This document shows, one piece after another, positions 4,076 through 57,690 of a stretch of 57,838 nt of DNA. This DNA is from an uncultured Candidatus Saccharibacteria bacterium. Lineage in GTDB: Bacteria > Patescibacteriota > Minisyncoccia > UBA10092. Location: assembly GCA_964495505.1 (NCBI GenBank), contig CAZBVM010000001.1:3783-61620 (forward strand). The letters run 5' to 3'. The number at the start of each line of letters is the position of its first letter. The stretch's first letter is position 1. Made by a program: the position numbers and the translations under genes. The notes beneath the pieces are model-generated. The model searched no databases. It was not told the DNA's origin and saw only the letters and a list, made by a program, of their open reading frames with translations.

Positions 4076-4750
4076 ATGGACAGCAATAAAAATAAAAATA
4101 AAAAAATTTGGCTGTCGCATTCGGGGATTGAAGGAATGTATCGTTGCCCGCGCTGTTTTTGGCTGCAATATAATAAAGGATTACGCCAGCCGGAAGGGAT
4201 TGTTTCGCGTTTGGCGAACCGATTTGACGTTATTTTAAAAAGATATTTTGATTTATACCGACAAACCGGCGAGCTGCCGCCAATGATTGAGGGAAAAGTT
4301 GAAGGAAAATTGGAAAATCCTTTCCAAGAAAAATATTTTTGGGATTACGGTGAAAAATATGGCCTAACCGGGCGGCTTGACGATTGTTTAATTCGCGAAG
4401 ATGACACTTATACGCCGGTAGATCACAAAACCGCCAGTTCCGATCCTCGTGAAAAAGATATTTTAGAGGCATATCAGCACCAGTTGAATTTTTATGCGTT
4501 TCTTCTTGAAAAAAATGGCAAAAAAACTTCGGGCTTCGGCCACTTGATTTATTATTATCCGGAACATGGAGAAGAGCTTCATAAAGGAGTGCCGATCCAT
4601 GTTCACATTCAAACTTTAAAGACGAATCCAAAACAGGCGGAACAAGAGTTTTTAAAAGCCATAAAAATTTTAGAAGAGAAAATACCAAAGCCATCTTCCG
4701 ATTGTTCTTTTTGCTTCTGGCATGAGCAGTTGAAGGAATTAAAGTTATGA
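4076..4750 (+). CDS. PD-(D/E)XK nuclease, Cas4/RecB-like, with CxxC...CxxC cysteines
   Basis: It has GRLDD...VDHKT (D...DxK), a QHQLNFY QxxxY motif, N-terminal CPRC and C-terminal CSFC. Confidence 0.7.
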   Translation: MDSNKNKNKKIWLSHSGIEGMYRCPRCFWLQYNKGLRQPEGIVSRLANRFDVILKRYFDLYRQTGELPPMIEGKVEGKLENPFQEKYFWDYGEKYGLTGRLDDCLIREDDTYTPVDHKTASSDPREKDILEAYQHQLNFYAFLLEKNGKKTSGFGHLIYYYPEHGEELHKGVPIHVHIQTLKTNPKQAEQEFLKAIKILEEKIPKPSSDCSFCFWHEQLKELKL

Positions 4751-5091: not shown

Positions 5092-5145
5092 TAACAAGGT
5101 TTGTATAATGTAAATGCTATAGCATAATTATTATACAAATACATA

Positions 5146-5780: not shown

Positions 5781-7202
5781 ATGACTTCCGGATACTCTCC
5801 CGACAAATTATTTAAACTGGATGTGACGAGCAAGATACGTTTTACTGTTCTTGCGATATTTATAGTCGCTGTTGCTGCGGCGTTTTTTGTTTACCCAACC
5901 GCGTGGAATAAAACGGTTGAAAAGTTTAATATTATTTCACCGATAAAAATTCCTGATTTTTTTAACATGCCGTTTAAACTCGGTCTTGATTTGGCCGGCG
6001 GCACACGTCTGACTTACTTAGCCGATATATCTTTAGTGGTTGATCAAGATATGGACTCCGCCATGTCTGGTCTGCGCGATGTTATTGAAAGGCGTGTTAA
6101 TCTTTTTGGCGTTAGCGAGCCGGTGGTTGAAGTTGAAAGCGCAGGCGAAGAATGGCGATTGATTGTTGAGCTTGCCGGGATTAAGGATATATCTTCCGCC
6201 ATTGATTTAATAGGCGAGACGCCGTTTTTAGAATTTAAAGAACCAAGAGAAGAAGCCGAAACCCAAAAAATTTTAAGCGAACAAAAAGCCGAAAATAAAG
6301 ATTATTTGGCAATGGATCCGTATTTTAAACCGACAAATTTAAGCGGCAAGTACATAAAAAGCGCTAAAATAGAATTTGACCAAACAACTTATCAGCCGAC
6401 GGTAAGCGTCCAATTTGATGGCGATGGGGCGAAAATATTTGAAAATTTGACCGCAAAAAACGTCGGAAAACCACTTGGCATTTATCTTGACGGACTGCCG
6501 ATTTCGGCGCCTGTTGTCAAAGAACCGATTGCCGGTGGTTCGGCGGTAATTTCCGGCAAATTTACTCTTACAGAAGCTAAAAAATTAGCTGAACGGCTTA
6601 ACGCCGGCGCTCTGCCAGTGCCGATTAAATTAATTTCGCAGGACTCTGTAGGCGCTTCTTTGGGCCGCGACTCGCTTGATAAAAGCCTATTTGCCGGACT
6701 GCTCGGTTTTTTAACGGTGGCGATGTTTATGATTTTATATTATCGTTTTTTTGGAATTGCGGCGGTAGCGGCGCTTTTAATTTACACCGCTTTGGTTTTA
6801 GCTCTATTTAAATTAATACCAGTGACTTTAACTTTGGCTGGAGTGGCCGGATTTATTTTATCAATAGGCATGGCTGTCGATGCCAATATTCTTATTTTTG
6901 AAAGGTTTAAAGAAGAGGTTCGTTCCGGAAAAGAGTTGGGGCTTGCCATTAACGATGGATTTACTCGTGCCTGGCCTTCTATTCGCGATTCCAACGTTTC
7001 AACCTTAATTACTACGGCCGTTTTATATTATTTCACCACAAGTATTGTCCGGGGGTTTGCCTTGACTCTTGGTATTGGTGTTATCGTAAGCATGTTTTCG
7101 GCAATTTTCGTAACCCGTTCATTTTTAAAGCTTTTCCCCACCATATTGCTTGAAAAATTACCGTGGCTGATGGGCGTTAGGCGCAAAATTTCTAATTTCT
7201 AG
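5781..7202 (+). CDS. secD: Protein-export membrane protein SecD
   Basis: N-terminal TM segment, periplasmic domain, and C-terminal 6-TM block with GMAVDANILIFERFKEE. secF follows. Confidence 0.93.
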   Translation: MTSGYSPDKLFKLDVTSKIRFTVLAIFIVAVAAAFFVYPTAWNKTVEKFNIISPIKIPDFFNMPFKLGLDLAGGTRLTYLADISLVVDQDMDSAMSGLRDVIERRVNLFGVSEPVVEVESAGEEWRLIVELAGIKDISSAIDLIGETPFLEFKEPREEAETQKILSEQKAENKDYLAMDPYFKPTNLSGKYIKSAKIEFDQTTYQPTVSVQFDGDGAKIFENLTAKNVGKPLGIYLDGLPISAPVVKEPIAGGSAVISGKFTLTEAKKLAERLNAGALPVPIKLISQDSVGASLGRDSLDKSLFAGLLGFLTVAMFMILYYRFFGIAAVAALLIYTALVLALFKLIPVTLTLAGVAGFILSIGMAVDANILIFERFKEEVRSGKELGLAINDGFTRAWPSIRDSNVSTLITTAVLYYFTTSIVRGFALTLGIGVIVSMFSAIFVTRSFLKLFPTILLEKLPWLMGVRRKISNF

Positions 7203-7299
7203 TTTCTATTAAATTTTCAATGATTCAATTTCTAATGTTTGAAAATTAATAAATTATAAATTTAATGAAAATTGTAAATTGAGAATTGAAAATTAATTT
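7203..7299. repeat. AT-rich GAAAATT/TTTCTAA-type intergenic repeat (family member)
   Basis: aaattttcaatgattcaatttctaatgtttgaaaattaataaatt is about 45 nt and near-identical to 31213-31258. It ends with agaattgaaaatta just before the secF ATG. Confidence 0.8.
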
Positions 7300-14023: not shown

Positions 14024-14596
14024 TTATTCTCCCTTCTCAACTCGCTCCACATATTCCCCAGTTTGGGTGTTGACGCGGATTATGTCTCCTTCGCTAACAA
14101 ACAAAGGCGCGACTATTTGAGCACTGGTTTCTATTGTAATAGTTTTAGTTCCGCCTTGGGCGGTGTTGCCGCGAGTGGCGGGGGGAGCTTCAACAACTTT
14201 AAAATCCATTTTTATCGGCAGGGTGATATTCAAAATTTCGCCGTTAAACTTTAGTGCTTCAACAACAGTGTTTGTTTTTAAAAAATTAATCGCGTTTCCG
14301 ATTTGTTCCTGCGAAAGTTTAAAGCGATTTGATTGGTTATTTTCTTCGGCGAACCAATATTCGCCGCGGTGGTTATATAAATATTTCACTTTCCTTTTTT
14401 CAATATCTGCTTCTTCAAAAGTGTCAGACGGCTTAAAATTCCGCGCCAAAACTTGGCCGGTTTTTAAGTTTTTTAACTTCGTCTGAATACTAGAACCGCC
14501 GCGGCCAATATGAAGATGGCGCGCCTCAAGAACTTCGTAAGGCGTGTTTTCATAGACGATACAGATTCCGTTTTGCAAATCGTTTATTGATAACAT
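14024..14596 (-). CDS. efp: Translation elongation factor P
   Basis: 190 aa. NDLQNG..I.....PYEV......H...GRGGSSIQTKLKNLKTGQ is a typical EF-P N-terminus. Confidence 0.95.
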   Translation of the reverse strand: MLSINDLQNGICIVYENTPYEVLEARHLHIGRGGSSIQTKLKNLKTGQVLARNFKPSDTFEEADIEKRKVKYLYNHRGEYWFAEENNQSNRFKLSQEQIGNAINFLKTNTVVEALKFNGEILNITLPIKMDFKVVEAPPATRGNTAQGGTKTITIETSAQIVAPLFVSEGDIIRVNTQTGEYVERVEKGE

Positions 14597-17129: not shown

Positions 17130-18263
17130 ATGTCAAGACAACAGAAGAAAATTTTTGTAGCAATGAGTGGCGGCGTTGATTCCTCAGTCGCCGCTTTATT
17201 GTTGAAGCAAAAAGGATACGATGTTACCGGTGTTTATATGAAAGGATGGTCTTTAACAGACTGCGCCGAGGAAGACGTGATTGACGCGAGGCGCGTTGCC
17301 GGCGTTTTAGATGTTCCATTTTATGTTTTTGATTTTGAAAACGAATTTAAAAAAACCGTGGTTGATTATATGGTTGGCGAATACGCTGCCGGCCGGACGC
17401 CCAACCCAGATGTAATGTGCAACCGGGAAATTAAATTTGGTTTATTTCTTAAAAAAACGCTTAAACTTGGCGCTGACTATATCGCCACCGGACATTATGT
17501 TAACTTGGAAACGGAGTTTCCAAGTGGAAACTCCGTTTCCAAGTTGCTGCCGGCGAAAGATAGCAGTAAAGACCAGAGTTATTTTTTATGGACTCTAACG
17601 CAAGAACAACTTAAACATTGTTTGTTTCCAATAGGCGATTATACAAAGCCGCAAGTGCGGGCTATAGCTAAAAAATATAAATTACCGACGGCGGAAAAAC
17701 CTGATTCGCAGGGCGTTTGTTTTGTCGGCGAAATTAATGTTGCCGAATTTTTAAAGGAAAAACTCGGAAAAAATCCGGGACCGATAAAAACACTTAATGG
17801 TAAAACTATAGGAACTCACGACGGAGCGACTTTTTACACCATCGGCCAGAGAAGGGGAATCGGCATCAAAGGCAGTTTGCCGGGCGAACGAGGGAAAATT
17901 TATTATGTCGCGGCAAAAGATTTAAAAACCAATACCATCCTTGTAGCCGAAGGCAAAGACGAAAATTTATTCTCAGATAATTTAACGGTAAAAAACATCA
18001 ACTGGATTTCTGGAAGACAACCAAAATTGCCGTTAAATTGTTTTGCGCGCATCCGCTATCGCCAGCCGCTGCAACAAGCACGGCTTGTTGAATTTCCAAT
18101 TTCCAATTTCCAATTTCCAAAAAAATCTAAAACATCAAATTCGAATTTAAAAACTTTCAAAGTAATTTTTGATACTCCACAGCGTGCCATAACTCCCGGC
18201 CAAAGTGCGGTTTTCTATACAAAAAACGACACCATGCTCGGCGGCGGGGTTATTGACAGATAA
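17130..18263 (+). CDS. mnmA: tRNA 2-thiouridine(34) synthase MnmA
   Basis: PP-loop VAMSGGVDSSVAA, ATGHY, KDQSYFL, and C-terminal PGQSAVFY...LGGG. Confidence 0.93.
   Translation: MSRQQKKIFVAMSGGVDSSVAALLLKQKGYDVTGVYMKGWSLTDCAEEDVIDARRVAGVLDVPFYVFDFENEFKKTVVDYMVGEYAAGRTPNPDVMCNREIKFGLFLKKTLKLGADYIATGHYVNLETEFPSGNSVSKLLPAKDSSKDQSYFLWTLTQEQLKHCLFPIGDYTKPQVRAIAKKYKLPTAEKPDSQGVCFVGEINVAEFLKEKLGKNPGPIKTLNGKTIGTHDGATFYTIGQRRGIGIKGSLPGERGKIYYVAAKDLKTNTILVAEGKDENLFSDNLTVKNINWISGRQPKLPLNCFARIRYRQPLQQARLVEFPISNFQFPKKSKTSNSNLKTFKVIFDTPQRAITPGQSAVFYTKNDTMLGGGVIDR
17504..17543. repeat. Perfect 19-bp-arm palindrome inside the mnmA coding region
   Basis: cttggaaacggagtttcca-ag-tggaaactccgtttccaag. Encodes ...LETEFPSGNSVSKL... 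Confidence 0.95.
18091..18120 (+). repeat. (ATTTCCA)x4 tandem heptamer inside mnmA
   Basis: aatttccaatttccaatttccaatttccaa encodes EFPISNFQFP. Confidence 0.95.
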
Positions 18264-18329
18264 TTTATTTCCTGTTACTATTTAGATATAGATTAACATC
18301 GCTCTTTAAATTTAAAAAAGGGGAAGCAC

Positions 18330-18857
18330 GTGGCCGAACAAATAACCGTTCCTCTTGTAGGTCAGGAAATATATATTCCTTCGGCTCTTTATATATCTCA
18401 TGGAAGAGACGATATAATGGGTGGTCGCGTAGTTGTTACTAAAGTTATCCAGGAAAAACATGGCGATAGAATCGTGCACAGCATTCAAGTAACGGGATTT
18501 CCAAATATAACTTATTATTGGGAAAATGGTCTTGCACAACAGCAAGAAGATTTGCGAGAACAATTTGGCGATCAGTTGGCTCATCCCGACCCTGATAAAA
18601 GAGAAGAGTTTAATTCCCATTCAGTTATTACGCGCGATGTTATCCGGCGTTGGCTTACAGAGGGGAAAGAAAGAGGCGCCACACATGTTATTGTGGTTTC
18701 TGATACCTTTTATTATACTTACTGTCCGACTTATGTGATGCCCGGTGAAGACCCACGACAAAAAGCCAAAGAAGTTGGCTCTGTAAAAGAAGTTTACTCG
18801 CTATCGCGCGATATTGAATCACAACTCGCAGAAAATCGAGCATTTCATTACGATTGA
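18330..18857 (+). CDS. Hypothetical protein (orphan, 175 aa)
   Basis: GTG start after AAGGGGA, and its own terminator. No recognised domain. Confidence 0.5.
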   Translation: MAEQITVPLVGQEIYIPSALYISHGRDDIMGGRVVVTKVIQEKHGDRIVHSIQVTGFPNITYYWENGLAQQQEDLREQFGDQLAHPDPDKREEFNSHSVITRDVIRRWLTEGKERGATHVIVVSDTFYYTYCPTYVMPGEDPRQKAKEVGSVKEVYSLSRDIESQLAENRAFHYD

Positions 18858-18881: not shown

Positions 18882-18914
18882 CCACAGGATTCAATACAAG
18901 CCTGTGGTTTTTTT
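18882..18914 (+). terminator. Rho-independent terminator of the 175-aa ORF
   Basis: ccacagg-attcaatacaag-cctgtgg followed by ttttttt. Confidence 0.7.
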
Positions 18915-18930
18915 ATCTTTCAATTTTCAT

Positions 18931-18970
18931 TTTTCGGAAATCAGCAACGATCGTTCGGATATTACGAAAA
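18931..18970 (+). repeat. Conserved 40-nt box, copy 1
   Basis: ttttcggaaatcagcaacgatcgttcggatattacgaaaa. Copies are at 33999-34038 (inverted) and 53563-53602. The centre is the palindrome AACGATCGTT (CAACGATCGTTG in copies 2 and 3) and the ends are inverted (TTTTCG...CGAAAA). Confidence 0.9.
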
Positions 18971-18986
18971 TTAAAAATTAAAAATT

Positions 18987-19016
18987 ATAATAAATTAGCT
19001 ATAGCTAATTTATTAT
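18987..19016. repeat. Perfect 30-bp palindrome, copy 1
   Basis: ataataaattagctatagctaatttattat. It follows (AAAAATT)~3. Confidence 0.95.
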
Positions 19017-19019
19017 ATA

Positions 19020-19076
19020 AGCGCGGTTTTTTACACTAAAACCGGCGAAATGCTCGGCGGTGGAATTATTGAATAA
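19020..19076 (+). pseudogene. Orphaned, diverged duplicate of the mnmA 3' end
   Basis: It encodes SAVFYTKTGEMLGGGIIE*, against SAVFYTKNDTMLGGGVIDR* at 18204-18263. 13 of 18 residues are identical and 6 differences are synonymous. There is no upstream coding continuity. Confidence 0.7.
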
Positions 19077-19166
19077 GTTTAATTTTAATTTGACAGATAT
19101 TTTTGTTTATTGTAGCATACTAAATATTAATTTTTTTGGTCTTTTTATTTATAAAAGGAGGCACAA

Positions 19167-19481: not shown

Positions 19482-19511
19482 CAAACTTTCGATTATACCG
19501 TCTGGGTTCAT

Positions 19512-19538
19512 CCACTGGGTTTACCCAGCGGTTTTTTT
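19512..19538 (+). terminator. Rho-independent terminator of the 104-aa ORF
   Basis: ccactggg-ttta-cccagcgg followed by ttttttt. Confidence 0.6.
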
Positions 19539-19636
19539 ATTTCAAATTAATATCCATGTCACATCATTTGTCCGATCGGACAAATAGTGTTACGCTTTGT
19601 TGATTTTTCTGTTATAAATCTGATAAAATTAGTCGC

Positions 19637-28883: not shown

Positions 28884-30131
28884 ATGGCTGAATATTTCAT
28901 TATAAACGGCGGGGAAAAATTAGAGGGTGAGATCACTGTCGGTATTGCTAAAAACGCGGTTTTGAAAATTTTAGCCGCTTCTATTTTAGCGTCGCAACCC
29001 GTTAAAATTGCTAAATTTCCGGAGATTGAAGATGTCAGCCGAATGAAAGAACTTCTTACTGATTTGGGCGCTAAATTTTCTGGCAATTTTATAAATTCTT
29101 CGGAAATAAAAAAAACAGATTTAAATTACAAAATTGCCGATAAATTCAGAGCTTCTATTGTTTTGACGGGACCGCTTCTTGCAAAGTTCGGCAAGGTTTC
29201 GTTCCCTCATCCCGGTGGCTGTACTTTAGGTAAACGGCCAATTGATTTTTTTATCGACGGCTTTAAGTCCTTCGGAGCTAATGTTAAAAGAAAGGGATCT
29301 ATTTTTACCGTATTTGCCAACAAACTTATTGGCAATAAATTTGTTTTTCCGATAATAAGTGTAACTGGAACCGAAAATTTAATGATGGCGGCGGCGCTGG
29401 CTCGGGGGAAAACAATTTTAAAAAATGCCGCTTGCGAACCGGAAATAGAAGATCTGGCCGTTTTTTTAAATTCTTTGGGAGCTAAAATTTCCGGAGCTGG
29501 CACGCCCTCAATTTCAATTGAAGGTGTGAAAAAACTTAATGGCGGCGTTTGGAATGGTTTTCCTGACAGAATTGAATCCGGAACTTTTGTAATTCTGGCA
29601 GTCGCCAGTAAAAGCAATATCAAAATAAAAAATTGCAATTCCGATCACTTGGAAGTGCTATTGACACTGCTTCAAAAAGCCGGCGCTGACCTTGAAATTG
29701 GCGCTGACTATGTTATAGTAAAACCCGTCAGAAATCTTCGCGCTATTAACGTTAAAACCCGTGAATATCCCGGTTTTGCCACCGATCTCCAAGCGCCGCT
29801 TACCGTTCTGTTGACGCAAGCCAGCGGCAATTCATTGGTTCATGAAACAATTTATGAGGGTCGTTTGTTTTACACCGATATCTTAAATCAGATGGGCGCG
29901 AATATTATTATAGCTGATCCGCACCGGGTTATTGTGCAAGGTCCCAGTAAATTACATGGTAAAAAAATTTACAGTCCTGATATTCGCGCCGGAATGGCTT
30001 TAATTATTGCGGCACTTTTAGCAAAAGGCCAAAGCATTGTGGATAATATTTACCAAATTGATAGGGGATACGAAAAAATTGATGAACGCTTGCGAGCATT
30101 GGGAGCGGATATCCAACGCGTAAAAAAATAA
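28884..30131 (+). CDS. murA: UDP-N-acetylglucosamine 1-carboxyvinyltransferase
   Basis: GEI.V.G.KNA.L.ILAA..LA, active-site PGGCTLGKRPID, and DRGYEKIDERLRALGA. Confidence 0.95.
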   Translation: MAEYFIINGGEKLEGEITVGIAKNAVLKILAASILASQPVKIAKFPEIEDVSRMKELLTDLGAKFSGNFINSSEIKKTDLNYKIADKFRASIVLTGPLLAKFGKVSFPHPGGCTLGKRPIDFFIDGFKSFGANVKRKGSIFTVFANKLIGNKFVFPIISVTGTENLMMAAALARGKTILKNAACEPEIEDLAVFLNSLGAKISGAGTPSISIEGVKKLNGGVWNGFPDRIESGTFVILAVASKSNIKIKNCNSDHLEVLLTLLQKAGADLEIGADYVIVKPVRNLRAINVKTREYPGFATDLQAPLTVLLTQASGNSLVHETIYEGRLFYTDILNQMGANIIIADPHRVIVQGPSKLHGKKIYSPDIRAGMALIIAALLAKGQSIVDNIYQIDRGYEKIDERLRALGADIQRVKK

Positions 30132-30162
30132 TTTTCAATTTCTAATTTCTAATTTTCAATTT
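30132..30162. repeat. AT-rich TTTCAATTTCTAA repeat (inverted copy of the TTAGAAATTGAAAAT motif)
   Basis: attttcaatttctaatttctaattttcaattt abuts the mreB ATG. Confidence 0.8.
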
Positions 30163-31176
30163 ATGAGTTTATTTACTAAAAAAATTGGAATTGATCTCGG
30201 CACTGTTAATACTCTGGTATTTATTCCCGGACACGGCATTATCTTAAACGAGCCCACCGTAGTAGCGATTTCTCCTGATAACAACGCCGTTTTAGCTATT
30301 GGTATAGAAGCTCAAACGATGATTGGTCGTACTCCTGAAAACATAATTGCCAAAAAACCGATGCGTGACGGTGTTATTGCTGATTATAAAATTACCGAAG
30401 CCATGCTTAGATACTTTATTGGTAAAAGTATGGGCAGATTCCAATTAATAAAACCAGAAGTTTTAGTGACCGTGCCGTCCGGCTCCAGTTCAACAGAAAG
30501 AAGAGCCGTTATTGATGCTGCCGTCAATGCCGGCGCTAGAGCTGCTTATATTGTTAAAGAACCGGTTTTAGCCGCCATAGGAGCCAACGTGCCAATTAAT
30601 TCGGCTTCTGGCAATTTAATTATGTCAGTTGGCGGCGGTACTACCGAGGTGGCGGTTATTTCTTTGGGTGGCATAGTGACTTCTCACTCAAGAAGAGTGG
30701 GAGGCAATAAACTCGACCAAGCAATTATTGATTATTTAAAACGGCGGCACAATTTAGCTATCGGTGAAAGAACCGCGGAAAGGATAAAAATTGAAATTGG
30801 TTCGGCTCTGCCGATAAAAGATGAACTTCACATCGGTGTTCGGGGTCGGGATATATTAACTGGCTTACCGCGGAACATTAACATTAGTACCAATGAAGTT
30901 GTTGAAGCGATTTCCGAACGGCTTAAAGAAATTGTCGGAGCTGTCAAACTGGTATTGGCTCAAACTCCGCCCGAATTGTCAGCCGATATAATGGATAAAG
31001 GAATAATTTTATCCGGCGGAACAGCACTCTTAAGGAATTTTGACGAGCTAATAATAAAGGCCACCGGAGTTCCGGTATACGTTGCCGAAGAACCACTATT
31101 TTGCGTCGCTAAAGGCGCGGGCTTGGTTTTAGAAAATTTGGATTTTTATAAACAAAGTATTATGGCCAGACGATAA
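30163..31176 (+). CDS. mreB: Rod-shape protein MreB (canonical motifs)
   Basis: IGIDLGTVNTLVF, EPTVVA, VGGGTTEVAVISLGG. Confidence 0.93.
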   Translation: MSLFTKKIGIDLGTVNTLVFIPGHGIILNEPTVVAISPDNNAVLAIGIEAQTMIGRTPENIIAKKPMRDGVIADYKITEAMLRYFIGKSMGRFQLIKPEVLVTVPSGSSSTERRAVIDAAVNAGARAAYIVKEPVLAAIGANVPINSASGNLIMSVGGGTTEVAVISLGGIVTSHSRRVGGNKLDQAIIDYLKRRHNLAIGERTAERIKIEIGSALPIKDELHIGVRGRDILTGLPRNINISTNEVVEAISERLKEIVGAVKLVLAQTPPELSADIMDKGIILSGGTALLRNFDELIIKATGVPVYVAEEPLFCVAKGAGLVLENLDFYKQSIMARR

Positions 31177-31341
31177 ATAAAATTTACAATTATCAATTTA
31201 CAATTTTCACTAAATTTTCAATAAATCAATTTTCAAATCGTTTGAAAATTAAAAATTAAATCATTGATTGAAAATTGTTCCGACCTTGTCGAGAATCCTC
31301 GATAAAATCGGGAAAAATTAGAAATTGAAAATTAGATATCT
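31177..31341. repeat. AT-rich intergenic repeat (longest family member) with embedded GC hairpin
   Basis: An imperfect long palindrome is centred on caaatcgtttg. It shares about 45 nt with 7212-7256. The hairpin is ccgaccttgtcgagaatcctcgataaaatcgg. TTAGAAATTGAAAATTA lies 9 nt before the ATG. Confidence 0.8.
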
Positions 31342-33885: not shown

Positions 33886-33938
33886 CTTTCGTATATCGCA
33901 TGATCGTTTGTTATACGACATTAAGTTTAATCAACTGT

Positions 33939-33968
33939 ATAATAATTTAGCTATAGCTAAATTATTAT
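33939..33968. repeat. Perfect 30-bp palindrome, copy 2
   Basis: ataataatttagctatagctaaattattat. It differs from copy 1 at positions 8 and 23, which are mirror positions, so it remains a perfect palindrome. Confidence 0.95.
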
Positions 33969-33998
33969 AATTTTTAATTTTTAATTTTTAATTTTTAA

Positions 33999-34038
33999 TT
34001 TTCGTAATATCCCAACGATCGTTGCTGATTTCCGAAAG
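33999..34038 (-). repeat. Conserved 40-nt box, copy 2 (inverted orientation)
   Basis: The reverse complement reads (c)tttcggaaatcagcaacgatcgttgggatattacgaaaa. It is joined to the palindrome by (AAAAATT)~5. Confidence 0.9.
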
Positions 34039-34099
34039 ATGAAAAATAAATAAACCGCTGGGCGAACCATGCGGTAGTGTAATCAGAGGCGTTTAAATG

Positions 34100-34342
34100 T
34101 TATTTAAAAAGCCTTTCTTTACTCATATAAACGTAATTCGGAGGATATTCCGCAGGCGGGATGTCGTCAAGAGGCATGTCAGTTACAAAAGCCACAATGG
34201 CTTCAGACGCCAATTCTTCTAATTTTCTCTCTCTTTCGGAACATGCGAGACATTTTTCTCCGTGTTCGATATATTCATCTAGCTTACGATCAAGTTCCCG
34301 CATAGGTAAGCTATAAAAATTCTTATGTTCCTCGCACGTCAT
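34100..34342 (-). CDS. Hypothetical protein (orphan, 80 aa, CxxC-containing)
   Basis: ATG after GGAGGGG, with its own near-consensus promoter. No recognised domain. Confidence 0.5.
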   Translation of the reverse strand: MTCEEHKNFYSLPMRELDRKLDEYIEHGEKCLACSERERKLEELASEAIVAFVTDMPLDDIPPAEYPPNYVYMSKERLFK

Positions 34343-34380: not shown

Positions 34381-34409
34381 AGTATATAACAATTATTTAT
34401 CATTGTCAA
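34381..34409 (-). promoter_or_regulatory. Near-consensus sigma70 promoter (TTGACA-N17-TATACT) for the 80-aa ORF
   Basis: The minus strand reads ttgacaatgataaataattgttatatact. Confidence 0.55.
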
Positions 34410-43174: not shown

Positions 43175-44296
43175 ATGAAATTACGTGAAAAAAACCGGCT
43201 CCGAACCTGGATTGAAGTTGATAAGCATGCGATTTTTAGTAATATTTCCGAGTTTCGCAAGCTGATAAAACCGCGAGTGAAATTAATGGCGGTAATTAAA
43301 TCCAATGCTTATGGACATGGCTTGATTGACTTCGCTAAAACGACGGAAAACAAAGTTGATTGGTTTGGGGTGGATTCTATTACGGAAGGGCTAAAATTAC
43401 GCCAAAAAGGCCTTAAAAAGCCTATTTTAGTGCTTGGATACACCTTGCCATCGCGAGTAGTAGAAGCCGCTCAAAATGACATCAGTTTGACCGTTTCAAC
43501 TTTAGACACCATAAAGCATTTGACTGCGCTAAAACATCGACCAAAATTTCATCTAAAAATTGATACCGGAATGCACCGGCAGGGGTTTTTTATCAAAGAT
43601 TTGCCGAAATTTACTAAACTTCTTAAACAATTTAAATTTTTTCCGGAAGGCATTTACACCCATCTGGCGGCCGCCAAAGACCGAGTGTATCCTTCTTACA
43701 GCTTTAAACAAATAGAAGATTTCAAAATAGCTGATGATTTTTTAAAAAAATCCGGATTCGCGAAATATTTACGGCATGCCGCAGCTTCAGCAGGTACTAT
43801 GTTATATCCAGAGTCACATTTTGATATGGTAAGAATTGGCATTGGTCTTTATGGAATGTTTCCGACAAAAGAAACGGAAATTCAAACTAATGTAAAATTA
43901 AAACCGGAGCTGACATGGAAATCAATAGTGGGCGAAATTAAAAACGTTCCGAAAGATGCCTACATCGGTTACGATTTTACGGGGAAAACCCTAAAAGCAT
44001 CTAAATTAGCAATTGTGCCGATTGGCTATTGGCATGGTTTTGACCGGGGTTTTTCAAACTGCGGTGAAATTCTAATAAGGGGCAAAAGATGTAAAGTTCT
44101 GGGACGAGTTAATATGGATATGATTGCAATTGATGTCTCTAACGTTCGAAATGTTAAAATTAATGATGAAGCAATAATTTTGGGTAGTTTTGGAAAAGAA
44201 AAAATAACTGCCGAGGATATGGCGCTGAAAATCGGCACGACAAATTACGAAATTATCACCCGAATTAACCCTCTTATTAAGCGTTTTTATATTTGA
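43175..44296 (+). CDS. alr: Alanine racemase
   Basis: PLP-lysine motif AVIKSNAYGHG. The C-terminal half has PIGYWHGF and RV.MDM. Confidence 0.93.
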   Translation: MKLREKNRLRTWIEVDKHAIFSNISEFRKLIKPRVKLMAVIKSNAYGHGLIDFAKTTENKVDWFGVDSITEGLKLRQKGLKKPILVLGYTLPSRVVEAAQNDISLTVSTLDTIKHLTALKHRPKFHLKIDTGMHRQGFFIKDLPKFTKLLKQFKFFPEGIYTHLAAAKDRVYPSYSFKQIEDFKIADDFLKKSGFAKYLRHAAASAGTMLYPESHFDMVRIGIGLYGMFPTKETEIQTNVKLKPELTWKSIVGEIKNVPKDAYIGYDFTGKTLKASKLAIVPIGYWHGFDRGFSNCGEILIRGKRCKVLGRVNMDMIAIDVSNVRNVKINDEAIILGSFGKEKITAEDMALKIGTTNYEIITRINPLIKRFYI

Positions 44297-44329
44297 AAAT
44301 TGAAAATTAGAAATTGAAAATTAAACTCT
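44297..44329 (+). repeat. AT-rich GAAAATTGAAAATTAGAAATTGAAAATTA repeat abutting the next start codon
   Basis: Contains TTAGAAATTGAAAATTA, shared with 31318-31334. Confidence 0.85.
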
Positions 44330-47102: not shown

Positions 47103-47179
47103 AGGCCCGTAGCTCAGTGGCAGAGCAGGCGCGCCTTATAAGCGCCAGGTCGGAGGTTCAAGTCCTCCCGGGCCTACCA
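47103..47179 (+). tRNA. tRNA with UAU anticodon context (Ile-like) and 2 extra nt in the anticodon arm, CCA encoded
   Basis: Acceptor stem aggcccg/cgggcct. D arm gctc-agtggca-gagc. T arm ggagg-ttcaagt-cctcc. The anticodon region is ggcgc-GC-cuUAUaa-gcgcc, which gives either a 9-nt loop or a bulged stem. Confidence 0.7.
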
Positions 47180-47213: not shown

Positions 47214-47242
47214 CCCCCGCAAACGCGGGGGAATTTCTTTTT
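47214..47242 (+). terminator. Rho-independent terminator after the tRNA pair
   Basis: cccccgc-aaac-gcggggg followed by aatttcttttt. Confidence 0.65.
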
Positions 47243-48782
47243 ATGGAACTATTAAAACGGGAGTGTTTAAATAAATAAATTCAACTTTTCCGTTCGAAAA
47301 CTTTTTGTTTAAATCGCGAGGTAATTCTAAATCAAAATAAATCGGAGCGATAACCGTGCCATTTTTTCCTAAGTTTATTTTATCAAATTTGTCAAATTTC
47401 AAATAATTTATTTCTGATTTTTTATAAGTAAGAAAAAATACTGTCTGCGCGGAAATTGGCAAACCATTCTCCGTTGGCTGATCATTCGAAGGCCAAATTG
47501 CGTATTTTTTAACATCTTGAGGCAGTCGGTTAAGATAGTCGGCAATTTTAACCTGATTTTGCGAGAAGGCCTCGACAGTGTGAATGTCTGAAGCCCATTT
47601 AACAAAATACTTGTTAAATTCCGAAAAACCTATAAATAGTAAGAAAATAATCAGCAATATAAAAACTTTTTTATATCTTTGTACCTTTCCCCAAATCCAA
47701 ACTAATCCAATTCCAGCAAAAACCATTGCTGCGGGCATTGCTCCCAAAGCCCGCAGGGCGTGGGGATTGCCCTCGGCTGCTAAAATATTTGGTAAAAGAA
47801 AAATGCCCAGCCACATCAGCATAAATTTTTCACTAAATCTTAAACGCTTAATACTAATACCTAATCCTATAAGAAATAAGATTCCTACCGGCCAAAATAA
47901 TTGCGGTGAATTGGCAAAATTATGCCGCCAATTAAAATCTCCGATGATATTAAACATCCCAAGTGTTGAAACGATGCTCAATATGGCAGCTTTAAACGGA
48001 TTTTCCGCCGACCAAATTGCCACTTGCCCGCTTCGGCCAAAGAAATCGCCGGGATTATTAAGAAAATAAAGCCCGATTGGCAAAGCAACGATAAAAGCTA
48101 CAATTGCAAAAATCACAAATCCCAACCAAAGATTTTTCACGCGGCGCCTTATAAGATAAGGAATAAAAAACATGGCGACTAAAACTGGCGCGAATCTATA
48201 TGAAATATAGGTGTAAAATCCTAAACCGAATAAAATCCCCGCAATGATAAAATCCGGTGTCCGACACCAAAATCCTCCGGTGTCGGACACCGGTTTTTTG
48301 TCTAGTCCTCGCCAAAGAAAATAAAAAGACCAAATTAAAAATGGCAGCATTAAACCGGCTCTGAAACCGATACGGCTGAAATTCACTGCCCAAAAACTAA
48401 TGGCTATAAAAAAGCTGGAAGCCAAAGCAACGTGCGGGTTAAAAAGTAATTTGGTTAAAAAATAAAGGCCTAAAACGGCCAAAACCCCTGCTGCGGCAGG
48501 AAAAACTCTTAAAACCCATGGCTCTGTACCGAAAAGTTTAATTGCCAAAACGTCGAGCCAAACAATCATTCCTTCGCGGCCGTTGTTATTAGAATAAAAA
48601 ACTCTGAAATTGCCTGATTCTAGAGAGGTAAGAGCATCGGCTCCATTCATCGCTTCATCCTGATAAAGTCCCGACGGAACTGAACCAAACTGCCAAAATC
48701 TAAAAAAAATCGCAATGGCGATAATTAAAATTAAAGAAAGCAGATACTTGTGTTTATAAATAAACTTTGTCATGCCTGCCAT
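47241..48782 (-). CDS. Second GT39/ArnT-like glycosyltransferase
   Basis: Polytopic protein with GLYQDEAMNG in the first loop. Contains an in-frame GC palindrome at 48254-48293. Confidence 0.75.
   Translation of the reverse strand: MAGMTKFIYKHKYLLSLILIIAIAIFFRFWQFGSVPSGLYQDEAMNGADALTSLESGNFRVFYSNNNGREGMIVWLDVLAIKLFGTEPWVLRVFPAAAGVLAVLGLYFLTKLLFNPHVALASSFFIAISFWAVNFSRIGFRAGLMLPFLIWSFYFLWRGLDKKPVSDTGGFWCRTPDFIIAGILFGLGFYTYISYRFAPVLVAMFFIPYLIRRRVKNLWLGFVIFAIVAFIVALPIGLYFLNNPGDFFGRSGQVAIWSAENPFKAAILSIVSTLGMFNIIGDFNWRHNFANSPQLFWPVGILFLIGLGISIKRLRFSEKFMLMWLGIFLLPNILAAEGNPHALRALGAMPAAMVFAGIGLVWIWGKVQRYKKVFILLIIFLLFIGFSEFNKYFVKWASDIHTVEAFSQNQVKIADYLNRLPQDVKKYAIWPSNDQPTENGLPISAQTVFFLTYKKSEINYLKFDKFDKINLGKNGTVIAPIYFDLELPRDLNKKFSNGKVEFIYLNTPVLIVP
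48254..48293. repeat. Perfect 15-bp-arm GC-rich palindrome inside a CDS
   Basis: ccggtgtccgacacc-aaaatcctcc-ggtgtcggacaccgg. The minus-strand frame encodes ...KPVSDTGGFWCRTPD... Confidence 0.95.
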
Positions 48783-52916: not shown

Positions 52917-53501
52917 ATGCGCGTAATCATTATCGCGGCATTTGCGATTTTTATTATTATTCCTTCTGTGTTGTCTGCGATTGACGAAAAGCCACCGCTT
53001 ACTGTGAGTATTGTCGTGGATCCGCTTCTTTACGACCGCTTTAAGAGTCCGGAGGAGCTTGAGGTACACCTTCTCAACATCATCAGCCGCGCCTCGCTCA
53101 TCTTCAACGCAGATATCGGCAGACAACTGGTGCTTGACGTAATCGAGGTCGGTCTTCCGCCGAATGCGGGACTCTCAATTGACGACAAGAGCGCTTTTGC
53201 GTGGTTGAAGGAGAAAGTAAAGAGACATCCGTCCCGATTCTGGGTTTTCCTCATTGACCGTCCGCTTGCTTCATGCAACATTTCAGGCACCTGGAGCGGT
53301 TGCGGGATGATGAATAATTCCATCTCCATAGTAGTGTACAATTCTGATCTTGCCCTTACCCTTCGGAATCTTCTTCACGAGCTTGGCCACAATTGCGGGG
53401 CGGATCACAGCGAATCAAAAATTTCTATTATGTATCCATGGGGCGGGAACAACGTGACCTACAGTGACAAAGTGGTCATCATTCGGGATACATGCGAGTG
53501 A
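52917..53501 (+). CDS. Secreted metzincin-type zinc metalloprotease (GC-rich orphan)
   Basis: Signal peptide, HELGHNCGADH (HExxHxxGxxH), and the Met-turn-like SIMYPW. ATG follows AGGAGG. Confidence 0.8.
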   Translation: MRVIIIAAFAIFIIIPSVLSAIDEKPPLTVSIVVDPLLYDRFKSPEELEVHLLNIISRASLIFNADIGRQLVLDVIEVGLPPNAGLSIDDKSAFAWLKEKVKRHPSRFWVFLIDRPLASCNISGTWSGCGMMNNSISIVVYNSDLALTLRNLLHELGHNCGADHSESKISIMYPWGGNNVTYSDKVVIIRDTCE

Positions 53502-53562: not shown

Positions 53563-53602
53563 TTTTCGGAAATCAGCAACGATCGTTGGGATATTACGAA
53601 AA
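53563..53602 (+). repeat. Conserved 40-nt box, copy 3 (no microsatellite or palindrome after it)
   Basis: ttttcggaaatcagcaacgatcgttgggatattacgaaaa, starting 61 nt after the metzincin stop. Confidence 0.9.
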
Positions 53603-53637: not shown

Positions 53638-53673
53638 AACGCACTAAAATCCTATAGGTCATTCGTGCGTTCA
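53638..53673 (+). repeat. 36-nt hairpin repeat, copy A
   Basis: aacgcactaaaatcctataggtcattcgtgcgttca. Copy B is at 57655-57690. Confidence 0.85.
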
Positions 53674-54621: not shown

Positions 54622-55218
54622 TTATGCATTTTTGTACATTTTAGGTTTTCTTAGTAATTTCATCAAAATCAGAATCCATCCGCCGAGAAATATCATAATT
54701 GGATTTATTAAAATATTGCTAATATCAAAATTTATTGTGGAAAATCCAAGAATAAACAATATGCCCGTGATAAATAATAGCTGAGCATTATTTAATGAAA
54801 TACTGATATTAGTTATAGCAATATTGTAATTCTCTAACGCATTATTTTCTAATATTTGATTTGGTTCATTATTTCCTAATTTTTTTAAAAAATATAAGGA
54901 CTTAAATAGTTCTTTGTCTGTAAAAGCGGCACGATAATGAATTTGATTCCATATAATAATCATAATGCCAGATGTAAAACTGAGCCAACTTATTAACAGA
55001 AATATTTTAAAATTTGCATTTGGTAATAACTTAATAAAAGAAAAACTTGCAACTAAAATCGCAGAAGATAATGTAATAAATAATTTTTCGCTATTATGAG
55101 AAATTTCGTATAATTTTTCAAATGAATCCAGGGACTCAAAAAGCCGTCTTTCTGATTTTAAAAGTCTATCTTTTGTTTTTTGAATAATTTTTGTATTTTT
55201 AAGACTGAAATTTTGCAT
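54622..55218 (-). CDS. Hypothetical membrane protein (about 4 TM)
   Basis: Uninterrupted 198-aa hydrophobic ORF. No family recognised. Confidence 0.5.
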   Translation of the reverse strand: MQNFSLKNTKIIQKTKDRLLKSERRLFESLDSFEKLYEISHNSEKLFITLSSAILVASFSFIKLLPNANFKIFLLISWLSFTSGIMIIIWNQIHYRAAFTDKELFKSLYFLKKLGNNEPNQILENNALENYNIAITNISISLNNAQLLFITGILFILGFSTINFDISNILINPIMIFLGGWILILMKLLRKPKMYKNA

Positions 55219-57631: not shown

Positions 57632-57654
57632 ATTAATTTGATAAATATTTTATG

Positions 57655-57690
57655 AACGCACTAAAATCCTATAGGCAGTTTATGCGTTCA
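57655..57690 (+). repeat. 36-nt hairpin repeat, copy B
   Basis: aacgcactaaaatcctataggcagtttatgcgttca. Confidence 0.85.

Follow-up and report, generated by a model that had tools for sequence, protein, structure and literature searches.

A 40-bp palindromic box at variable gene slots in Patescibacteria and its possible link to a PaaX-family protein

The DNA analysed here, referred to as the window, is a stretch of 57,838 nucleotides from an uncultured Candidatus Saccharibacteria bacterium (GTDB lineage Bacteria; Patescibacteriota; Minisyncoccia; UBA10092; assembly GCA_964495505.1, contig CAZBVM010000001.1, positions 3,783 to 61,620 of the forward strand). It carries three copies of a 40-nt sequence, termed the box. 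Judged by its sequence, the box is a 40-bp dyad-symmetric DNA site in which two arms of ~16 bp flank an invariant ACGATCGT core. The reading preferred here, at a rough probability of 0.45, is that it serves as the dimeric binding site of a 184-aa PaaX-family protein encoded in related genomes. The dispersed copies stand at the outer edge of DNA inserted or exchanged beside core genes, in slots that consist of a promoter, an open reading frame (ORF), a terminator and the box.

Anatomy and spread of the box

A pattern scan for the 40-mer, allowing at most one mismatch, found exactly three copies in the window and no match in 100 dinucleotide-preserving shuffles. A looser scan of the window (up to 13 mismatches) gave no extra copies and only detected the known sites again on the opposite strand, as the box is an imperfect palindrome. 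It is symmetric at 14 of 20 positions, with the inverted outer ends TTTTCG/CGAAAA and the palindromic centre CAACGATCGTTG, in keeping with the dyad-symmetric architecture of a protein-binding site predicted in the initial annotation of this DNA. The same annotation had correctly located the three copies, dispersed rather than arrayed, each on the strand of its upstream gene and 73, 61 and 61 nt past the stop codon. Between copies there are 15–20 kb. The copies and the elements attached to them are as follows:

18931..18970, + strand: box copy 1, TTTTCGGAAATCAGCAACGATCGTTCGGATATTACGAAAA; 73 nt past the stop of a 175-aa ORF
18971..19017, + strand: (TTAAAAA)2 tract and perfect 32-nt AT palindrome (18986–19017) of copy 1
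33999..34038, − strand (read 34038–33999): box copy 2, CTTTCGG...CGAAAA, the G variant; 61 nt past the stop of an 80-aa ORF
33938..33998, − strand: (TTAAAAA)4 tract and AT palindrome (33938–33969) of copy 2
33889..33918, − strand: box-prime, a diverged box-like palindrome, TCGTATAACAAACGATCATGCGATATACGA, behind copy 2; ends 4 nt from the RseP stop
53563..53602, + strand: box copy 3, solo, with no AT-rich palindrome behind it; 61 nt past the stop of a metzincin-like ORF

In copies 1 and 2 the box forms a module with a (TTAAAAA)n tract and, behind it, a perfect 32-nt palindrome, TATAATAAWTTAGCTATAGCTAAWTTATTATA, and this composite was also present in three other genomes (L002, L017 and L025; L numbers designate loci other than the window). 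Of these, L025 holds the orthologue of copy 2, there located behind a different gene. Relatives of box-prime were found in L025 at 9370 and 18688 (the latter at the SerRS stop) and in L017 at 5717, where the element overlaps the mnmA stop codon.

Exact-pattern scans covered representative genome assemblies, metagenome stretches and viral contigs (IMG/VR), and protein-anchored look-ups added the syntenic regions of relatives. Full genomes were scanned without mismatch tolerance, so the copy number per genome is a lower bound. Matches were obtained in two representative assemblies (three loci) and ten metagenome stretches; only one representative assembly had more than one box, with two exact matches, and in relatives there were 0–2 boxes per 20-kb syntenic block. 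The box was thereby located, almost unchanged, in several tiny groundwater Parcubacteria. Ten distinct copies were 92–100% identical over all 40 positions, the unpaired ones included, in genomes whose proteins (EF-P, ProRS) are just ~75–85% identical. Four patterns (box centre, left half, right half and AT palindrome) run against the viral contigs gave a single chance-like coding match (L014), and the box is therefore not phage-borne in IMG/VR.

The contexts of the box are varied. It follows an orphan gene and its terminator in all three window copies and in L001, L011 and L025, but follows core-like genes without a terminator in L002 (tRNA-binding protein, 9 nt) and L006 (VirD4-like ATPase, 23 nt). 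It was further found behind a SIS-domain gene (L004a), likewise core-like and lacking a terminator, behind a 170-aa gene (L005a), upstream of gdh within a divergent promoter region (L003), on both sides of a PaaX-family gene (L004, L005 and L007) and in frame within efp (L009, L013 and L016–19). Partial duplications of the left arm adjoin full copies in L010 and L025. Stop-to-box distances in other genomes were 9, 23, 23, 41, 64, 82 and 83 nt. The fixed gene-to-box distance proposed earlier was thus not upheld, and since the distances in relatives range from 9 to 83 nt, the near-equal 61/61/73 spacing in the window reflects terminator length and not a rule. The proposed tie to foreign cargo was likewise lost with the copies after core-like genes, upstream of gdh, beside the PaaX-family gene and inside efp. 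Positions behind ordinary core genes and elsewhere are partly what had been expected of a generic repeat; the box is not, however, a generic terminator-associated one, at least seven further intergenic terminators of good quality in the window being without it. Among 12 independent intergenic loci the box points the same way as the upstream gene in 9, and it does so in efp too.

The PaaX-family gene and its palindromes

The gene enclosed by boxes in L004, L005 and L007 encodes a 184-aa protein with a PaaX_M (Cas2-like) domain, a member of a large Patescibacteria family (779 matches). Orthologues from L004/L005/L007, L029 (82% identical) and L030–32 (68% identical), which lie in differing genomic contexts, were compared. 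Upstream of the gene all three carry a palindrome of 16 nt, ACGATCGT and 16 nt, then one T, then T(G/A)TGATTATAAT. The end of the palindrome is separated by exactly 1 nt from a conserved TRTGATTATAAT motif in all three diverged orthologues, and this motif is probably the −10 region. The T(G/A)TGATTATAAT 12-mer was found nowhere else in the ~400 kb of DNA examined. The arms of the palindrome are TTTTCGTAATATCCCA / TGCTGATTTCCGACTT in L004, TATTCTGAATATCCTA / TTCCGATTTACGATTT in L029 and TTTTCTAACAATTCAG / TGTTATTCTTAGAATT in L030, the window box being a palindrome of the L004 type. A second palindrome lies 35–50 nt past the stop codon and is nearer to the upstream palindrome of its own genome in L004/L005 and L030, with a tie in L029. 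Half-sites in the leaders of L004/L005 and L029 are inverted copies of the arm of the same genome: the L004 arm matches its own leader at 14/16 positions and the L029 leader at 11/16, while for the L029 arm the figures are 15/16 with its own leader and 12/16 with that of L004. The short leader of L030 contained no arm-like half-site (8/16). A fixed position at the promoter (three orthologues) together with co-variation of arm and leader (L004 and L029) is what is classically seen where a DNA-binding protein regulates its own gene through an operator.

The PaaX_M profile matched 38 of 38 family members examined and Cas2 matched 25 of 38. In the AlphaFold model (pLDDT 86.5) the C-terminal half matches Cas2, VapD and Escherichia coli PaaX. 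The N-terminal 95 residues gave weak but recurrent winged-helix matches (HTH_27, HxlR, TFIIE_alpha, HTH_12, Rep3 WH2), and a profile search with residues 17–94 gave weak matches to the winged-helix regulators QsrR and YodB. The protein is accordingly modelled as a putative winged-helix-like N-terminus, as suggested by these weak hits, joined to a Cas2-like C-terminal domain. Such a protein would bind the box as a dimer and autoregulate its own gene, and the dispersed copies, including the three in the window, would be further binding sites of the same protein. Autoregulated winged-helix repressors such as E. coli PaaX and those of the MarR/HxlR type are similar in having a dyad site over their own promoter, co-varying arms and extra sites in the leader. 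The 184-aa protein shares the middle (Cas2-like) domain of E. coli PaaX but lacks the PaaX C-terminal domain, and differs in the presence of extra box copies away from promoters. The PaaX operator is ~15 bp, compared with 40 bp for the box. It should also be noted that an ORF of the window for a PD-(D/E)XK protein, weakly Cas4-like (4076–4750), is conserved in L017 (18418–20190), where the orthologue adjoins a 232-aa PaaX_M (Cas2-like) paralogue, giving a Cas4-like and Cas2-like neighbourhood without CRISPR.

The box inside efp

In one group of relatives EF-P has 202 aa instead of 190, and the 12 extra residues, ISNDR(W/S/R)DI(T/S)KLT, are encoded by the box read in its sense orientation. The insert (36 nt, in frame, patchy among EF-P relatives) is located in a surface loop of the protein; its insertion point is ambiguous, because the box shares 9 nt with the native sequence. 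The window shows the loop in its empty state:

14024..14596, − strand: efp (190 aa), "empty" state of the box-bearing loop

Among L013, L016 and L017, efp is 75–81% identical at the nucleotide level. Third codon positions are identical at 12–13 of 13 positions within the box compared with 49–61% elsewhere in efp, the probability of 13/13 matches at p ~0.52 being ~2e-4, and the variable positions of the efp box are non-synonymous only. From these sequence comparisons the orthologous efp copy is held at the nucleotide level, whether through selection or through conversion from other copies. Such constraint favours sequence-specific recognition over mere hairpin formation. With the loop masked, box-bearing EF-Ps were not mutual nearest neighbours, and one (P0009) looked mosaic. 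At the low resolution of this comparison, the insert thus has more than one gain, loss or transfer behind it. A local inverted duplication of efp sequence was rejected as the source of the box, since neither the left arm nor upstream efp yields the right arm on reverse complementation.

Other inserts were observed in the same loop. In further relatives (L027, 420–461; L028) it carries two unrelated in-frame insertions, a 42-nt GC-rich hairpin (NPAQQGEARPTQVGR), which enters at a different point from the box, and one of a PRLRQGFDGQ type. Like the box, both are scattered patchily over the EF-P relatives. Within the window, a 40-nt GC-rich near-perfect hairpin (CCGGTGTCCGACACCGG...CCGGTGTCGGACACCGG) at 48254–48293 (−) lies inside a PMT_2 glycosyltransferase ORF (47241–48782) and may be another in-frame palindromic insert.

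The efp copy also bears on a possible role in RNA, in which the box would be a hairpin in read-through 3' untranslated regions and in efp mRNA, where an RNA-binding protein or RNase would recognise it and act on stability, processing or termination. The box does fold as a modest hairpin (RNA −8.2 kcal/mol, z −2.0; DNA −7.2 kcal/mol, z −3.6), its orientation follows the upstream gene at most loci and in efp, and there is nucleotide-level constraint on the efp copy. Most copies, however, lie downstream of intrinsic terminators and would hence rarely be transcribed. The copies are invariant and so offer no covariation, and there was no Rfam match: a gathering scan of the window with Rfam 15 returned three tRNAs only, and all hits of a permissive E-value scan were far below gathering, the best with 24.7 bits against 195. 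The stability is modest, no U-run follows, and the perfectly self-complementary centre is the signature of a DNA palindrome. At the PaaX-family gene, moreover, the site lies upstream of the −10-like motif and on the opposite strand, and thus outside that transcript. A role of the box as an RNA element is considered very improbable.

Variable slots and junctions at box edges

The initial annotation had placed the box where gene content varies, and this was supported by three mnmA-alaS gaps with different genes and by contig homology that breaks exactly at box edges. The genes and gene ends beside the window copies are the following:

18203..18256, + strand: intact mnmA 3' end, left copy of a 54-nt direct repeat; encodes SAVFYTKNDTMLGGGVIDR and stop
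18330..18857, + strand: 175-aa orphan ORF; own promoter TTGACA at 18253, terminator 18882–18915
19019..19072, + strand: second mnmA 3' end, a remnant (SAVFYTKTGEMLGGGIIE and stop), directly abutting the AT palindrome
34100..34342, − strand: 80-aa orphan ORF; promoter TTGACA at 34409, terminator ~34044–34076
52917..53501, + strand: 194-aa secreted metzincin-like ORF; motif HELGHNCGADH, GC content at third codon positions (GC3) 0.56

The placing of the box after a terminator held for copies 1 and 2, with a clear stem-loop and T-run, and less so for copy 3, where the stem is weak (~4–5 pairs). The three genes had also been described as foreign. This applies to the metzincin-like gene, with its GC3 of 0.56 against 0.35 ± 0.05 for 36 core ORFs, but the 175-aa and 80-aa genes are not compositionally odd. 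None of the three proteins matched a Pfam, PHROG or NCBIfam family, the 194-aa protein giving only sub-threshold metzincin matches. Exact-sequence look-ups found nothing for the 175-aa protein and, for the 194-aa protein, only one short identical contig.

The unit of copy 1 is bracketed by a 54-nt direct repeat, 78% identical with many of the differences synonymous. As the mnmA 3' end is doubled, a segment bringing an mnmA end of its own went in upstream of the old one, and from the sequence the right-hand junction of this insert is the box/palindrome module. In three genomes the mnmA-alaS gap carries the box with different small genes on either side. The order in the window is mnmA, 175-aa gene, terminator, box, palindrome, mnmA remnant, 104-aa gene and alaS. 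In L011 it is mnmA, 76-aa and 71-aa genes, terminator, box, a probable mnmA remnant, a 146-aa gene, the same terminator with a vestige of the box, and alaS; the probable remnant is identical to that of the window at 22/28 positions and scores 26 against a shuffle maximum of 22. In L017, mnmA overlaps box-prime and is followed by a geneless promoter and Shine-Dalgarno sequence, a terminator, a diverged box, the palindrome, three other small genes and alaS. L016 has neither mnmA nor any slot.

The gap between RseP and ProRS is empty (21 nt) in L026. In L021–24 the 80-aa gene occupies it, promoter and terminator being the same and the box module missing, in L025 the same promoter and terminator surround a gene for a 95-aa membrane protein and are followed by the full module of box, palindrome and box-prime, and in the window the 80-aa gene is accompanied by the full module. 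As the gene occurs without the module in L021–24 and the module with another gene in L025, the ~190-nt module is an indel independent of the cargo. The swap of ORFs took place between the conserved −35 region and the conserved terminator, and not at the box.

Sharp breaks of homology were seen around the PaaX-family gene, a unit that stands in four different contexts in four genomes, though other core genes are strongly syntenic. In L004 and L005 the left box alone is shared, followed by 60 unrelated nt and then by the gene with its promoter (84–99% identical); homology stops exactly at the last base of the right box, and the outer flanks show no relation on either side. Variants of the left arm (T1/G7 versus A1/T7) go with the left flanks, and the rare right-arm variant A28 is common to both. 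L001 and L002 are syntenic at larger scale yet differ on either side of the box, the upstream gene of L001 being truncated. In L029 (4235–4320), a diverged secA promoter with the first ~25 codons (MSILSSIFGDANERYLNGVK...) abuts the palindrome upstream of the PaaX-family gene, and the intact secA (from 5965) lies 1.6 kb downstream, beyond that gene and a 234-aa gene. Three cases, two clear (copy 1 and L029) and one probable (L011), thus show one pattern, in which an inserted segment is joined within a duplicated core-gene end on one side and exactly at the outer edge of a box-type palindrome on the other, and we infer that the duplicated end served as the homology anchor of the inserted segment. 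No remnant of a neighbouring gene was found beside copy 3. In mechanistic terms, the palindrome, bare or protein-bound, would be a preferred break-and-join point, and segments ending at the box would integrate by homology at their other end, leaving a duplicated piece of the adjoining core gene. Minimal mobile elements of Neisseria and the homology-facilitated illegitimate recombination of transformable bacteria resemble this in their varied cassettes in one gap, one-sided homology and duplicated gene end; unlike there, the non-homologous junction here is a specific conserved palindrome in the two clear cases and the probable one.

Promoter-like and terminator sequences recur as well. The promoter-like sequence TTGACAGATA(T/A)TTT stands before different small ORFs in two genomes (window 18253–18281 and 19090–19118; L002 1–40); the first window copy overlaps the mnmA stop, and the ORF behind it in L002 carries in-frame TAA and TAG. 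A terminator family (ACCG...CCAGCGGTTTTTTTATTT) lies behind different small genes (window 19490–19540 and 34044–34076; L011 3636–3665 and 4367–4396; L021; L025) and is one component of the conserved slot scaffold.

Variable flanks of this kind could also mean that the box is a true cassette recombination site, similar to attC or to the pdif sites of Acinetobacter, at which a host recombinase crosses over and so moves units of gene and box. Both flanks do vary round a conserved box (L001/L002; window/L011/L017), a unit between two direct boxes occurs in two contexts with arm variants segregating with the flanks (L004/L005), the mnmA-alaS gap holds tandem slots, and in L010 and L025 an arm, a second arm and an inverted arm follow one another in a manner reminiscent of FRT-type sites. 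A conserved site beside variable, often orphan genes, with homology breaking at the site, is likewise known from integron attC sites, Vibrio VCRs and Acinetobacter pdif. The box arms are not 11-6-11 Xer sites, however, and the cassettes here come with promoters and terminators of their own. Neither the surroundings of the copies nor the window yielded a recombinase, and a scan of ~45 window ORFs gave no recombinase, transposase, integrase or Y1/HUH protein. The palindromic centre spans 12–18 bp, whereas the core of a tyrosine recombinase site has an asymmetric spacer of 6–8 bp, and a symmetric central dinucleotide would give a serine recombinase no directionality. Cargo and box are uncoupled at RseP-ProRS, where the ORF was swapped between promoter and terminator, the essential gene efp carries the site in frame, and duplicated core-gene ends are better explained by homologous integration at one side than by a conservative, site-specific exchange. 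Recombination within the box is for these reasons judged distinctly unlikely.

An identity as integron attC site, to whose logic the initial annotation had likened the box, could not be maintained, as the ends lack the R''/R' cores, the box has only 40 nt, and there is neither an array nor an integrase nearby. In the test for these cores (R'' RYYYAAC ... R' GTTRRRY at the ends), AAC/GTT occurred only at the centre, and GTTGGGA fails at the final Y; no integrase was found beside the copies in relatives' loci or among the window ORFs. attC sites are roughly 55–140 nt in length. Xer dif/pdif sites (28–31 bp, two 11-bp arms, 6–8-bp centre) were rejected in view of inverted repeats 12–18 bp apart (according to where the arms are delimited), a palindromic centre and several copies within 35 kb.

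The presence or absence of the module with conserved flanks bears on a further possibility, that the box is a selfish palindrome of the repetitive extragenic palindromic (REP)/REPIN type or like a MITE, a miniature transposable element with inverted repeats. It would be copied in trans by a REP-associated tyrosine transposase (RAYT) or an IS200-IS605-type transposase acting on a single-strand hairpin, landing in gaps behind terminators and now and then in tolerant coding loops. The imperfect hairpin (with the DNA fold given above), the polymorphism of the ~190-nt module (absent in L021, present in the window and L025), the patchy efp insertion with other hairpin elements in the same EF-P loop, and the partial left-arm duplications beside full copies (L010, L025) are all consistent with this. 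The inverted ends TTTTCG/CGAAAA are such as a MITE might have, but no target-site duplication was found in the flanks of the copies or at the empty and filled site of L021 versus window/L025, these being the junctions examined. The copy number is low, no Y1/HUH transposase was among the ~45 ORFs scanned, and three diverged orthologues have the palindrome at the very same nucleotide position by the PaaX-family promoter. The near-identity across genomes with 15–25% protein difference, synonymous sites in efp being kept, is atypical of decaying selfish repeats. Compared with the REP/REPINs and RAYTs of enterobacteria and Pseudomonas, the box shares the form of a short imperfect palindrome of two inverted half-elements, mostly extragenic past gene ends; it differs in being AT-rich, conserved across species and fixed at one promoter, with no RAYT nearby and few copies per genome (a lower bound) rather than hundreds. 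Rickettsia palindromic elements (RPEs) are similar in being both intergenic and in frame in coding sequence, where they add a peptide loop (12 aa in the case of EF-P), but are numerous and 100–150 bp long, whereas here 36 nt entered one host gene and synonymous sites are constrained. An origin as a selfish repeat is regarded as unlikely. As to class, the sequence evidence points, at somewhat less than even odds, to a palindromic repeat that binds protein and behaves in ways similar to REPs and RPEs.

Weighing the binding-site reading and the wider palindrome class

Several points weigh against recognition of the box by the PaaX-family protein. No PaaX-family gene is present in the window, the home gene being known from relatives' loci alone, and the assignment of the N-terminal winged helix rests on weak matches. 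The dispersed copies lack the promoter geometry of the home locus and are therefore not ordinary operators, and a protein site after terminators and inside efp is without obvious regulatory logic. A role in RNA, or one coupled to transcription, would suit the agreement in orientation with the upstream gene better than a symmetric operator does. The three junctions at box edges could be explained if any long palindrome is fragile, and the significance of the mnmA remnant in L011 is marginal. The dispersed copies may serve for insulation or as a transcription roadblock, or may be a mere recombination scar.

It is also conceivable that the winged-helix and Cas2-like protein and its 40-bp palindromes form an undescribed gene-mobilisation system of the candidate phyla radiation (CPR), a speculative and rather improbable extension. 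The protein would then recognise box edges and perhaps nick there or recruit breakage, and box-ended segments, its own gene included, would be inserted beside core genes with the other end resolved by homology. Orphan-gene slots would be built and reshuffled in this way, and the efp copy would be a domesticated landing. Full-text literature searches on palindromic repeats of the CPR and on PaaX/Cas2-like proteins turned up no relevant description of the element or of a role of the family.

Other identities were rejected. An intrinsic terminator is contradicted by the A-rich sequence behind the box and by the separate stem-loop and T-run that precede most intergenic copies; a CRISPR repeat was ruled out on anatomy; and the copy number is too low for a DNA-uptake sequence. 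Few, conserved and partly intragenic copies could suggest a Ter-like replication-fork trap or a parS-like centromere, but copies 1 and 2 have opposite orientations although both lie to one side of the GC-skew maximum, and the box bears no resemblance to parS. Some resemblance to a HUH/Rep nick site (GATATTAC versus TAATATTAC) was given no weight, as no HUH protein was found.

The box is the sole member of a palindrome class that was seen in multiple copies and across genomes. Many single-copy palindromes of ~34 nt, with CGATCG or CTATAG at the centre, occur just past stop codons in the window (5103–5136, 19559–19592, 53638–53671 and 57645–57688), L013, L016 and L017. At one orthologous gap the window has CTATAG in the middle, where L017 has CGATCG. 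All centres are self-complementary, a mark of DNA palindromes rather than of RNA loops. One of these palindromes lies in the slot next to that of copy 1:

19559..19592, + strand: CGATCG-centred palindrome, single copy, unrelated in sequence to the box; after the terminator of the next slot (104-aa ORF)

GATC is ~two-fold under-represented in the window (105 observed against ~202 expected from base composition), whereas CGATCG is not depleted (10 against 7.5 expected), with 4 of the 10 in intergenic palindromes. Short tandem motifs of the AATTTCT / AATTTTC type (repeat families D1, I3 and I6) occur intergenically in both orientations at 7187–7299, 30125–30174, 31181–31237 and 44293–44325.

The window is otherwise a housekeeping stretch, with SecDF, sigma-70, efp, RNR, mnmA, alaS, ribosomal proteins, MreBC, PBP2, several aminoacyl-tRNA synthetases and dnaX, and its nearest database proteins carry Azambacteria or Parcubacteria names. 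Two further features were observed in it. A 198-aa ORF (54622–55218, −; 24.6% GC, no family match) lies between NUDIX/GNAT genes and tRNA-Gln, and a tRNA-Ile gene with the anticodon TAT (47103–47179) adjoins tRNA-Lys(TTT). This anticodon is uncommon among bacteria.

Genomes of the CPR/Patescibacteria are tiny and contain few mobile elements that can be recognised, and the routes by which accessory genes are acquired and exchanged are poorly understood. The box provides a sequence-defined marker, valid across genomes, of places where orphan genes come and go, and a candidate protein that can be tested in vitro would make the question of accessory-gene exchange approachable by experiment. Within efp it is a rare case of a non-coding DNA element under nucleotide-level constraint inside the gene of an essential translation factor. 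For the widespread "Cas2-like" family of Patescibacteria, sometimes annotated as Cas2, recognition of the box is the first testable role to be proposed.

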